Assembly: GCF_000015145.1 (NCBI RefSeq)
Contig: NC_008818.1
Coordinates: forward strand, 120,001 to 152,000
Length of the DNA: 32,000 bases
Reading direction: 5' to 3'
Source of the DNA: Hyperthermus butylicus DSM 5456
GTDB lineage: Archaea > Thermoproteota > Thermoprotei_A > Sulfolobales > Pyrodictiaceae
The notes below the pieces were generated by a model. It did not search any database. It was not told the DNA's origin and saw nothing but the letters and a program-made list of their open reading frames with translations. Of this stretch, positions 23,645 to 26,101 are shown piece by piece. The stretch's first letter is position 1. The number at the start of each line of letters is the position of its first letter. The translations under genes and the position numbers were made by a program.

Positions 23645-24529
23645 CTAGATGTGTTTTGATGTTATCTCCCACCTGCCATCGGGTGTTATGTAGCCTGTTG
23701 CCCTCCTTATGGCCCAGCAGTTGAACACGACGCCTACAGCATAGGTTGCTGGGTGTCGGTGCGCATAGTCTATGTGTACATCTAGCGCAGTGATCTTGCC
23801 GCCGAAGCCGTGTACGCCTATACCCAGACTGTTGATTGCATCGAGGAGCTTCTCCTCTAGCTCAGCTATTTCCGGCTCGGGATGCCTCTCGCCGAGAGGG
23901 CGTAGGAGGGCTGCCTTCCTGGCAATTGCCAGTGCTTGTTCGCCCAGCGCTGCGATGCCAACGCCGACGACTACGGGTGGGCATGGTTTAGGGCCGGCAG
24001 AGACAACGGCCTTTAGTACTGTCTCCCAGACGTTGCGGATCCCCCTTATCGGCAGTGCCATGTTAAGCGTTGAGGGCGCCTCGCTGCCACCGCCCTTAGC
24101 TACAAACGTGACTTCTAGCCGGTCACCCGGCACAATCTCTACGTCGAACCACGGTATGTGCCTGCCAGTATTATCGCCCGTGTTTCCACCGCGTATAGGG
24201 TTGACAGCATTGGGTCTCAATGGTATGAGCCTTGTCGCCTCTCTCACAGCTTCAGTAGCTACCTCGTATATCTTCGCCCGGAGGGGGAACTCCTCACCAA
24301 GCCTTATGTAGAACACCGGCGTACCGGTATCCTGGCATATAGGCTTACCAAGCTTTGCTGCTAGCTCGGAGTTCCTCAGAATGGCCTCCAGGTGCTGCTT
24401 CGCTATAGGGTTATCCTCAACCTCCAATGCTTTCTTAAGCGCGTTGTAGACGTCGAGCGGCAGCCGGGTCTCGGCAACCCTTATCAACTCGACGAGGAAC
24501 TCGCGTAGCCGGGCCTCAAGCTCAGGCAA
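23645..24529 (-). CDS. fumA: Class I (Fe-S) fumarate hydratase, alpha subunit
   Basis: ICQDTGTPVFYIRLG is the CQDTG cluster-ligand motif. GGNTGDNTG and FVAKGGGSE are also present. TTG start at 24529. It lies 23 nt upstream of the beta subunit. Confidence 0.9.
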   Translation of the reverse strand: MPELEARLREFLVELIRVAETRLPLDVYNALKKALEVEDNPIAKQHLEAILRNSELAAKLGKPICQDTGTPVFYIRLGEEFPLRAKIYEVATEAVREATRLIPLRPNAVNPIRGGNTGDNTGRHIPWFDVEIVPGDRLEVTFVAKGGGSEAPSTLNMALPIRGIRNVWETVLKAVVSAGPKPCPPVVVGVGIAALGEQALAIARKAALLRPLGERHPEPEIAELEEKLLDAINSLGIGVHGFGGKITALDVHIDYAHRHPATYAVGVVFNCWAIRRATGYITPDGRWEITSKHI

Positions 24530-24659
24530 CTGTCATCAACCCGTTTTGTTTCTCTGCAGCCGTACTTTCAATACTATTTACGGTGTGTAAAATATGCTAG
24601 TCAGTGCTGGTCAGAACCCAGTCAAGGACACCACCAGTATAAGCCCCGTTCAAGCAAGA

Positions 24660-25040
24660 TCGCGGAGCTGGGAGGCGGTGACGAGAAACCCCGGAGACCC
24701 GGCTTACGACCCGCCCTCGAGGCGGGGATGGGTGGAGCCCCGCATCACCGAGCCATCCTCTGTGATGTCTCCTAGGCTAAGCCCCTTGGAGCCACTGCGA
24801 CGCTAAGGGTATGACTATACTACTGTCCCTCGGAAGCTTTGAGGATGGGCCAGCCTAGCCAATTAACCTCAACGTGCAGCCAGCATCAACAGCAGCCCGC
24901 TAACAGTCGAGGTCTACGTGCTCTTGCAGCCTAGTCCATAGGCTATGTAGGCCAATCATTATAGCCCAGTTGGGCCTAGTACGTGTTGGGCCTATGAGGT
25001 AGTTTGGCTACCTCCTTAGCCCCCGCGTATTGGGGGCTGT
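24660..25040. ncRNA. Candidate structured non-coding RNA(s); identity and strand unresolved
   Basis: There is no credible ORF on either strand across the 732-nt gap 24530-25261. Local helices are dense: CCCGCC/GGCGGG (24710-24726), GGATGG/CCATCC (24726-31 with 24753-58), CATCAC/GTGATG (24743-48 with 24762-67), GAGGTAG/CTACCTC (24996-25014) and AGCCCCC/GGGGGCT (25018-25038). A possible closing helix pairs 24661-24675 with 25011-25027 (5+3+5 bp). A TATA-like TAAAATAT lies at 24586-24593. Confidence 0.3.
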
Positions 25041-25148
25041 GCTGACTTCCGGCCTTGCCGAGGCCCAAACAAGCAAAAATAGTGAAAGGAGCAAGGACAA
25101 AACAAGTTGGGACGAGAAGGCATCGGAAGAAAAAGCCTGGCCCCGCGT

Positions 25149-25192
25149 GTATCCCCTCCCGCTCACCTGCTGCTAGAGGAGGGAGGGGATAC
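25149..25192. repeat. Perfect 12-bp inverted repeat (stem-loop) upstream of the DUF62 gene
   Basis: GTATCCCCTCCC (25149-25160) and GGGAGGGGATAC (25181-25192) flank a 20-nt loop. A purine-rich tract precedes it (53 of the 65 nt in 25071-25135 are A/G). Function unknown. Confidence 0.7.
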
Positions 25193-25261
25193 TCACCATA
25201 GGGGTTTGGGATAGGCTGATTAGCCTCTCCATCGTCCTCCAGGGTTTGTAGGAGCTGGATT

Positions 25262-26101
25262 GTGGCTAGGGGGTGTCGGCTAGGTTTGGCTCCGCGGCCT
25301 ACTGGCGTGGTAGTTTACATGAGTGATTTCGGGTGGAGTGACCCTTATGCAGGCATTGTGCGCGGCGTTATCGACCTCGTCTCGGGTGGCCGTGTTAGGG
25401 TTATCGACTTGACGCATGATGTTCCCGCCTTTAGTATTGTTGCTGGCGCCTACATACTATACACTGGCTACAGGTTCTTTCGCCCCGGCACAGTCTTCCT
25501 GGTGGTCGTAGACCCGGGTGTTGGTACCGAGCGCCGAGCAATAGCCGTCGAGACTAGGAACTATTATTTCGTAGGCCCTGACAACGGCGTACTCTATCCA
25601 GCCATCGAGGAGGATGGTATTGTGAGAGTACACGAGATAAGTAACGAGGCAATATTCCTCAAACCAGTCTCAATGAGCTTCCATGGCCGCGACGTCTTCG
25701 GCCCAGCTGCAGCCCTCCTAGCCCTCGGCGTGCCTGTAAGTGCCCTCGGCGGCCCGGTTGAGCCCTCTACGCTACGTAGACTGAGCCTGAGAACACAATG
25801 CATAAATGAAGGCCGCGTTGAGGCCGAGGTAGTCTACATAGACCATTTCGGCAATGTAGCGCTAGGCCTCGAGAGGGATTGTGTGGAAAGGCTCTGCAGG
25901 CGGAGCGGCAGGGTGGTTGTGGAGACTGGTAGAGGAGTGTTTGAGGCTAAGTGTCTCCCAGTGTTTAGTCATGCAGAGCCGGGGGAGATGGTGTTCTACC
26001 TTAACAGTCTGGGGTTCCCAGAGCTGGCAGTAAACCTTGGAAATGCAGGGGAAAAGCTGGGTGTGAGGATAGGAGAGAGATTAGTTATCGCGCCTGGCTA
26101 G
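25262..26101 (+). CDS. S-adenosyl-L-methionine hydroxide adenosyltransferase (DUF62, chlorinase/fluorinase-like fold)
   Basis: VVYMSDFGWSDPYAGIVRGVI (family motif TDFG..D.Y.G..KGVI), FLVVVDPGVGTERR, GPDNG, FHGRDVFGP and YIDHFGNV. The family-typical N-terminus suggests the start may be GTG 25307 rather than GTG 25262. Confidence 0.8.
   Translation: MARGCRLGLAPRPTGVVVYMSDFGWSDPYAGIVRGVIDLVSGGRVRVIDLTHDVPAFSIVAGAYILYTGYRFFRPGTVFLVVVDPGVGTERRAIAVETRNYYFVGPDNGVLYPAIEEDGIVRVHEISNEAIFLKPVSMSFHGRDVFGPAAALLALGVPVSALGGPVEPSTLRRLSLRTQCINEGRVEAEVVYIDHFGNVALGLERDCVERLCRRSGRVVVETGRGVFEAKCLPVFSHAEPGEMVFYLNSLGFPELAVNLGNAGEKLGVRIGERLVIAPG

Follow-up and report, generated by a model that had tools for sequence, protein, structure and literature searches.

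The intergenic gap between the class I fumarase and SAM hydroxide adenosyltransferase (SAM_HAT/DUF62) genes of Hyperthermus butylicus DSM 5456, at positions 24530-25261 of the 32,000-nt stretch of its genome that we analyzed (the window), probably contains two independent genes for archaeal box C/D small RNAs (sRNAs), both on the plus strand. The upstream element, sRNA 1, is a predicted guide for tRNA, and the downstream element, sRNA 2, is a predicted dual guide for rRNA; judging from the sequences, we place the probability of this reading at about 0.85. The evidence lies in the boxes themselves, the kink-turn (k-turn) geometry, covariation in the stems, invariance of the guides, complementarities to the targets in the N+5 register, phylogenetic spread, and the genes for three proteins, fibrillarin, Nop5, and L7Ae, all of which are in the genome. 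Both elements have several of the features that define a box C/D sRNA, namely a C/D k-turn, C' and D' boxes, and guides of at least 9 nt with an N+5 pair. From these features, we infer that both are transcribed, assembled into ribonucleoprotein (RNP) particles, and active in methylation.

In such a particle, a C/D sRNA would bind L7Ae at two k-turns (C/D and C'/D') and then recruit Nop5 together with the methyltransferase fibrillarin. The 10-13 nt upstream of box D or D' would select a nucleotide for ribose 2'-O-methylation, the methylated nucleotide being the partner of the fifth guide base upstream of the box (N+5).

When the gap was compared with 40 relatives by BLAST, only two short blocks proved to be conserved, at 24674-24754 and ≈24988-25065. 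Because the two blocks occur at unlinked loci, and the gene neighbors of the first differ from genome to genome, they are free-standing small genes and represent neither a single RNA nor the leader of a flanking gene. The gap thus holds two separate small plus-strand genes, not one large RNA. An initial annotation of the gap had listed a cluster of guide sRNAs among several possible identities, and this is the option borne out by the boxes, covarying stems, and guides of the two box C/D sRNA genes described below.

sRNA 1 is a probable long box C/D sRNA with an internal k-turn

We read the layout of sRNA 1 from an alignment of 12 copies. Its parts, all on the plus strand, are as follows.

24637-24644, plus strand: TATA-like box AGTATAAG, ≈30 nt upstream of sRNA 1, a putative promoter element
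24674-24754, plus strand: sRNA 1, box C/D sRNA, 81 nt; the covariance model (CM) match spans 24672-24756
24674-24676 with 24752-24754, plus strand: terminal stem, GGC with GCC, alternating with GGG/CCC in homologues
24678-24684, plus strand: box C GUGACGA, one spacer nucleotide after the terminal stem; GUGAnGA in the alignment
24685-24694, plus strand: conserved 5' element GAAACCCCGG, antisense to the tRNA T arm
Between GAAACCCCGG and the second conserved element ACCCGGCU, plus strand: variable-length insert
24696-24704, plus strand: D' guide GACCCGGCU, antisense to nucleotides 9-1 of tRNA-Gln
24706-24709, plus strand: box D' ACGA (nnGA), directly 5' of the internal stem
24710-24726, plus strand: internal stem-loop CCCGCC-CUCGA-GGCGGG, six pairs (6-7 bp across copies)
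24728-24734, plus strand: box C' AUGGGUG; AUGAGUA in relatives, consensus AUGRSUR
24735-24747, plus strand: D guide GAGCCCCGCAUCA, 13 nt
24748-24751, plus strand: box D CCGA; CNGA in all homologues

Within its class, sRNA 1 is unusual: it reaches 81 nt, its internal k-turn is a true one, and its D' spacer spans 21 nt. Box C conforms to RUGAnGA. None of its letters U, G, A, G, and A changes among the 12 family sequences; in the set of 32, four of these positions have a single exception each, and the last A has two. K-turn geometry is seen in both box pairs, where a G.A pair adjoins a Watson-Crick stem and the C/C' side carries a 3-nt bulge. In the C'/D' pair, as read from the alignments, A24709 stands opposite G24730 over the 3-nt bulge GAU. 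The spacer between C' and D measures 13 nt, and that between C and D' measures 21 nt, where ≈12 nt is usual.

An A/T-rich box lies 25-35 nt upstream of most sRNA 1 homologues, at a distance matching that of AGTATAAG in H. butylicus. The promoter suggested in the initial annotation was a different TATA-like sequence, TAAAATAT, which is indeed present, although it starts at 24588 and not at 24586; it lies ≈80 nt upstream of sRNA 1, and the box at 24637-24644 is better placed and conserved. The A/T-rich boxes TAAAATAT and AATACTATTTAC both fall within positions 24570-24595 of the window. The fumarase gene, on the other strand, starts 40-65 nt away, and the boxes may serve a divergent fumarase promoter rather than sRNA 1.

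Conservation and covariation of sRNA 1

By BLAST, the sRNA 1 block is found at 73-85% identity in 13 genomes of the same family, representing seven genera. A covariance model built for it, CM R1, gives 102 bits for sRNA 1 of H. butylicus and between 45 and 98 bits for its counterparts in the family, and it detects the element in 18 of the 19 family genomes. R1 and a second model, R2, extend the distribution to five further families of the order at lower scores (7 at E ≤ 0.01); these searches gave no match in any of the 34 genomes of one large sister family and none in other orders of the class. The distant copies are shorter (62-75 nt), with canonical forms of 62-70 nt among them, and have the look of textbook C/D sRNAs, as illustrated by the 62-nt homologue L092, which reads AUGAUGU-12 nt-CCGA-CUU-GAUGAGG-13 nt-CUGA.

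The stems of sRNA 1 covary. In a MAFFT alignment of 12 sequences, 92% of the cells are paired, compared with 75% in shuffles and at most 56% in slid registers, and six pairs show double changes. Four of the six pairs of the internal stem have changed on both sides in these 12 sequences, and the terminal-stem column pair 5/97 is divided evenly between CG (six) and GC (six). With 32 sequences, all six pairs of the internal stem have changed on both sides, 92% of the cells are paired, and covariation reaches a score of 0.39, whereas shuffled columns give 0.105 and slid registers no more than 0.14; this alignment was fitted to the CM and leans towards the modelled structure.

No conserved gene context accompanies sRNA 1, and the genes upstream of it vary (ATP-grasp, SfsA, translin, and others). 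The sole context pattern is an upstream tRNA-Met gene in one sister family (f7: L064, L065, L066, L073, and L074), in which a same-strand tRNA-Met(CAU) gene precedes the sRNA 1 homologue by ≈20-85 nt. Dicistronic tRNA-sRNA transcripts have been described in other archaea, and the arrangement suggests one here.

Weaker matches to the model in the H. butylicus genome are further C/D sRNAs of 65-85 nt (G000:431489-431570, 948349-948415, 1270524-1270594, 801132-801212, and 268878-268959). A D' guide of the AAACCCCG type, directed against the T arm, is shared by three of these five, and a stem lies between D' and C' in at least one. The long C/D architecture may be common in this genome.

Complementarity of sRNA 1 to tRNA-Gln

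The D guide of sRNA 1 forms 12 contiguous Watson-Crick pairs with positions 23-34 of tRNA-Gln(CUG), the pairing starting at the second base before box D, and 12 pairs, one of them G-U, with tRNA-Gln(UUG) and tRNA-Pro(UGG). Random NNGA sites in the gap reach only 9.5-11 in the guide-match test. The N+5 nucleotide of the D guide, C24743, pairs with G26. The predicted outcome is selection of G26 in tRNA-Gln (CUG and UUG) and tRNA-Pro(UGG), which would give Gm26, or m2,2Gm26 after Trm1. We rejected rRNA as a target of sRNA 1, since its best matches to rRNA reach at most 9-10 bp and are not convincing. The two glutamine tRNAs differ in their exons at position 34 alone; the tRNA-Gln(UUG) gene, at G000:830868-830966, contains a 23-nt intron and was miscalled by ARAGORN as 'tRNA-Stop(tta)'.

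The core of the D guide, GCCCCGCAU, is nearly invariant over 50 homologues because the target stretches of tRNA-Gln, a molecule 96-100% identical across the order, are themselves identical. Two genomes have a C at position 33 of tRNA-Gln, and in both, sRNA 1 has the matching G opposite. In these two (L034 in G008 and L035 in G014), tRNA-Gln(UUG) reads GGGGCCUUGG, compared with GGGGCUUUGG in all others, which puts a C at the usually universal U33. The correspondence is weakly consistent with pairing, because a G occurs at that sRNA position elsewhere too.

A second stretch, the D' guide GACCCGGCU, forms 9 bp with nucleotides 9-1 of tRNA-Gln and sets its N+5 nucleotide, G24701, opposite C4. The element ACCCGGCU occurs in 13 family homologues, with GCCCGGCU in a 14th, and in all 14 copies exactly 1 nt separates the anti-acceptor stretch from box D', whereas its spacing from box C differs among copies. 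Further upstream, GAAACCCCGG is conserved order-wide as GRAAYCCCGG and is antisense to the T arm at about positions 48-56, with 8 bp to tRNA-Gln here. In L092, this element is the 12-nt D' guide, followed by CCGA, and in the canonical-size relatives generally, the anti-T-arm element is the D' guide proper, with N+5 at ≈G50. Four stretches of sRNA 1, 38 nt in all, are complementary to tRNA-Gln. One of them, the match of GGCGGGGAU in the internal stem to tRNA positions 59-67, we judge to be chance because the stem varies among species and the tRNA does not. The lengthened D' spacer of the Pyrodictiaceae copies would also pair with tRNA-Gln 1-9, selecting C4, and with the T arm, such that sRNA 1 may combine two guides with accessory pairing, all directed at one tRNA.

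It is quite possible, although we do not favor it, that sRNA 1 is a C/D RNA in which only the D guide works. The element ACCCGGCU and the preceding CCCCGG would then form a CCGG/CCGG hairpin that shortens the 21-nt spacer for the Nop5 ruler, and the acceptor-strand match would be incidental, with no guiding at C4. Single-sequence folds draw this hairpin, and its CCGG tracts are constant although the loop between them ranges from 4 to 18 nt in length; both arms are invariant, however, which leaves the hairpin without covariation proof, and conservation goes past CCGG to A-CCCGG-CU. One orphan guide is usual in tRNA-targeting sRNAs (PMC7994747), yet here the D' stretch matches the same tRNA as the D guide and does so at a fixed position, 1 nt from box D' in every sequence. 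A simple count puts the expectation of a 9-nt match to any one chosen tRNA at ≈3 in 10,000 cases.

The four complementary stretches could instead belong to an antisense chaperone or regulator (or a tRNA-derived element) that controls the folding or availability of tRNA-Gln and is not a methylation guide, and the D' spacer does resemble the tRNA's own 3' strand, nucleotides 57-72. We consider this very unlikely, since all four boxes (C, D, C', and D') are complete and conserved and adopt k-turn geometry, canonical-size homologues exist in sister families, and the N+5 register is exact. The placement of one of the four stretches in a species-variable stem, opposite a constant tRNA, also speaks against it.

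sRNA 2 is a predicted dual guide for 23S rRNA

The second conserved block is a box C/D sRNA of 83 nt, identified from alignments, a covariance model (CM R3), covariation, and folding. Its parts are as follows.

24958-24964, plus strand: TATA-like box ATTATAG, 22-28 nt upstream of sRNA 2, read from the sequence as a putative promoter element
24986-25068, plus strand: sRNA 2, box C/D sRNA, 83 nt
24986-92 with 25062-68, plus strand: terminal stem of 7 bp, UUGGGCC/GGCCCAA; one spacer nucleotide (U) follows the 5' strand
24994-25000, plus strand: box C AUGAGGU
25003-25014, plus strand: D' guide UUUGGCUACCUC, invariant, at the end of a 14-nt spacer
25015-18, plus strand: box D' CUUA; CUGA, CCGA, or CGGA in relatives
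25019-24 with 25032-37, plus strand: internal stem, which covaries, followed by the bulge UGU
25039-45, plus strand: box C' GUGCUGA
25046-25057, plus strand: D guide CUUCCGGCCUUG, 12 nt
25058-61, plus strand: box D CCGA

In sRNA 2, the spacer from C' to D measures 12 nt and that from C to D' measures 14 nt. Covariation is seen at each of the nine modelled pairs, and the element folds far better than shuffles (z = -4.45). BLAST against the 40 relatives finds the block in five genomes at differing loci; CM R3 scores 89 bits at sRNA 2 here and has matches in 16 of the 19 family genomes. Homologues in other families are canonical, at ≈62 nt, and canonical 12-nt spacers are seen in the homologues L092 and L120. 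No other genome examined has sRNA 2 beside sRNA 1; in G011, sRNA 2 lies ≈1.1 kb upstream of the SAM_HAT orthologue.

Both guides of sRNA 2 match 23S rRNA in the correct register and at sites 28 nt apart. The D' guide forms 11 Watson-Crick pairs with indices 2118-2128, placing N+5 at 2121, and the D guide forms 11 pairs (one G-U) with indices 2090-2100, placing N+5 at 2093. We take index 2121 to be U1931 and index 2093 to be G1903 in Escherichia coli numbering, positions that presumably bracket helix 69; the numbering comes from aligning this stretch to the E. coli sequence around helix 69, anchored on m5U1939 and m5C1962. The two guides would accordingly be predicted to select G1903 and U1931, on either side of helix 69.

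The direct repeat TTGGGCCTA occurs at 24970-24978 and at 24986-24994. The second copy forms the 5' strand of the sRNA 2 terminal stem; 16 nt upstream, the first occupies the space between the TATA-like box and the gene. The repeat may reflect a partial duplication or provide an alternative 5' stem.

The gap does not behave as one large RNA or as a protein gene

The initial annotation framed the gap as one candidate structured RNA, and we regard it as exceedingly unlikely that all 732 nt form one large noncoding RNA, be it a divergent RNase P or signal recognition particle (SRP) RNA or a new class, closed by pairing of 24661-75 with 25011-27. The complementarities behind the idea are real: every sequence and local complementarity quoted in its support is present, the start of TAAAATAT being the sole error. 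The whole region also folds slightly better than shuffles (z = -2.0). This signal comes mostly from sRNA 2 and from a 12-bp hairpin at 25149-25192, however, and 1 of 20 shuffles folds equally well, which leaves 'hairpin-dense' a modest description. 'GC-rich' is similarly weak, with 55.5% GC in the gap compared with 53.9% in the window, and only 24600-24800 reaching 63.5%. Recurrence of AGCCCC is uninformative because the window holds 28 copies, both strands counted.

The conserved part of the gap consists of two ≈80-nt blocks only, which sit at different, unrelated loci in every other genome, and the intervening 24755-24985 is unconserved and folds no better than shuffles. The proposed closing helix joins the flank of sRNA 1 to the interior of sRNA 2, and no other genome examined has these two genes linked. 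Among the local helices, those at 24710-24726 and 25018-25038 are the covarying internal stems of sRNA 1 and sRNA 2. The helix at 24996-25014 exists in this sequence, but only its outer GAGG/CCUC part recurs in relatives. The pairings of 24726-31 with 24753-58 and of 24743-48 with 24762-67 would join conserved parts of sRNA 1 to its nonconserved 3' flank, and we do not retain them.

Genuine RNase P and SRP RNA genes lie elsewhere in the genome, both of full length, at G000:2947-3271 (RNaseP_arch, 147.9 bits) and G000:1383619-1383932 (Archaea_SRP, 146.2 bits); neither model has a match in the gap at E ≤ 10, and the gap shares with RNase P RNA only the short CR-V-like resemblance of ACCCGGCUUAC. 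At gathering thresholds, Rfam finds tRNAs elsewhere in the window and nothing in the gap; at E ≤ 10, the gap yields only chance matches of the miRNA type. Over the 12 homologous loci, Rfam recovers neighboring tRNAs and gives no match for the homologues.

It is a negligible possibility that the conserved block belongs to a small protein gene: an ATG-started open reading frame (ORF) of 70 aa (24594-24806) spans it, but the ORF has no Pfam match, conservation ends with the 81-nt block, homologue lengths differ by non-multiples of 3, 4 of the 12 homologues carry stops in all three frames, and the variation is paired-column covariation and not third-codon variation, all in keeping with the original description of the gap as coding-free.

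Flanks and remainder of the gap

The genome is a single contig of 1,667,163 bp with 53.7% GC, and the NCBI taxonomy places H. butylicus in the Pyrodictiaceae, Desulfurococcales. That the gap lies between the two flanking genes is confirmed by the ORF list and by Pfam.

23645-24529, minus strand: class I fumarase alpha (PF05681), left flank of the gap
Right flank of the gap, plus strand: SAM hydroxide adenosyltransferase (SAM_HAT/DUF62) gene (PF01887/PF20257)
25149-25192 (context 25075-25215): hairpin GUAUCCCCUCCC/GGGAGGGGAUAC, 12 bp with a 20-nt loop, fold z ≈ -2

Although the gap stands, its right end at 25261 does not, and the noncoding stretch probably runs from 24530 to 25318, because comparison with the G011 orthologue identifies ATG 25319 as the conserved start of the SAM_HAT gene. 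The ATG at 25319 is probably the start in preference to the GTG at 25262: this ATG and ≈45 nt upstream of it (≈25274-25318) align with the G011 orthologue, and the Pfam domain of the long ORF starts at residue 18. Apart from these ≈45 nt, neither 24755-24985 nor 25069-25318 is conserved outside the genus, and 24846-24985 shows no structure or conservation on either strand.

A third C/D candidate, found by pattern scan at 24755-24848 on the plus strand (GUGAUGU...AUGACUA...UUGA, with AUCC/GGAU), was rejected because its stem-to-box spacing is wrong, BLAST finds no conservation, its guide matches are within noise, and its fold is no better than shuffles (z = +0.41).

The interval 25069-25318 contains a purine-rich tract and the perfect 12-bp hairpin. 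On the minus strand, ACA and an oligo-U run (GGCUUUUUCUU) come after the hairpin, which could thus be a small RNA of that strand ending in an oligo-U terminator; alternatively, it could be a structure in the 5'-UTR (untranslated region) of the SAM_HAT gene. The hairpin is not conserved upstream of the orthologues in G011, G006, G013, and G010. We rejected an H/ACA sRNA at this position, where the stem is uninterrupted and has no pocket, the match to Pab91 has E = 1.6, and the sequence is unconserved.

Discussion

Several observations weigh against the assignment of box C/D guides in this gap. The spacer between C and D' of sRNA 1 is long, and sRNA 1 on its own folds no better than shuffles (z = -0.79); poor fold scores against shuffles are usual for C/D RNAs. 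Most sequences of sRNA 1 have G.G or A.A in place of the second G.A pair of the C'/D' k-turn; in the C'/D' motifs of the sRNAs, the boxes are degenerate, with G.G or A.A often replacing A.G at the 2b.2n pair. Invariance of tRNA-Gln in the target stretches precludes a real test of guide-target covariation, and the 32-sequence alignment has the lean towards its model noted above. We found no literature report of ribose methylation at C4, or at G26 of tRNA-Gln specifically. The best Rfam C/D model in the gap, sR40, scores 15.1 bits (E = 3.6) against a threshold of 50.

In thermophilic archaea, tRNA-targeting guides, dual rRNA guides with sites <100 nt apart, and clustered sRNA genes are all normal (PMC7994747, PMC6009581). 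Examples that target tRNA include Pyrobaculum sR27, directed at U34 of tRNA-Gln, and guides predicted for G26 of tRNA-Val/Gly in Pyrococcus (PMC6009581, PMC7668247). In Pyrococcus tRNAs, C/D guides are predicted for G26 and m2,2Gm26 is observed (Wolff et al. 2020, PMC7668247), and in Sulfolobus acidocaldarius there are guides for U34 and G18 of tRNA-Gln (PMC7668247). The ribose methyltransferase for m2,2Gm26 is listed as unknown (Hori et al. 2018, PMC6313347), and tRNA of Pyrodictium occultum contains m2,2Gm (PMC6313347).

The arrangement of sRNA 2 resembles the dual rRNA guides of the Crenarchaeota (Dennis et al. 2015, PMC4644070; Lui et al. 2018, PMC6009581), its sites, 28 nt apart, following the typical within-100-nt pattern. 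Unlike those guides, the Pyrodictiaceae copies of sRNA 2 have a 6-7 bp D'-C' stem and a D' spacer of 14-19 nt, whereas the distant homologues are canonical at 62 nt.

With the tRNA-targeting archaeal C/D sRNAs, sRNA 1 shares the C/D and C'/D' boxes, the terminal stem, the N+5 rule, a tRNA target, a guide ending one nucleotide before box D, and what appears to be a free-standing gene with its own promoter. It differs from the known tRNA guides in several respects. Its predicted target is G26 (possibly C4) of tRNA-Gln/Pro and not position 34 or 18; it is 81 nt long rather than 50-65, with a 21-nt C-to-D' spacer, and matches no Rfam family; and its C'/D' motif is a real k-turn on a 6-7 bp stem and not a k-loop. 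Eukaryotic box C/D snoRNAs reportedly can have accessory ('extra') base-pairing to the substrate beside the guide, as van Nues and colleagues are said to have described in 2011. The conserved complementarity of sRNA 1 outside its D guide (T arm 48-55, acceptor 1-9) would be a likeness to these snoRNAs, from which sRNA 1 differs in that the substrate is a tRNA and the organism archaeal.

A more far-reaching version of the tRNA-guide reading can be outlined, although we think it unlikely. In this version, the Pyrodictiaceae sRNA 1 would be a guide devoted to one tRNA. Its lengthened D' spacer would copy the 3' strand (57-72) of the acceptor/T-arm helix of tRNA-Gln, displace that strand, hold the 5' acceptor and T-stem strands, and open the core, and a single sRNP could then methylate both C4 and the buried G26. 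Such a particle would supply the missing m2,2Gm26 2'-O-methyltransferase activity in hyperthermophile tRNA.

Resolving this 0.7-kb unexplained intergenic region yields ordinary genes that annotation and Rfam had missed, and the two covariance models (≈50 and ≈25 homologues) are usable to annotate these sRNAs in Desulfurococcales-type archaea. The sRNA 1 family illustrates how a canonical 62-nt guide can gain a true k-turn stem and a second antisense element against the same tRNA. As a candidate for the ribose-methyl activity behind m2,2Gm26, a modification tied to tRNA stability above 100 °C, sRNA 1 is open to direct test.

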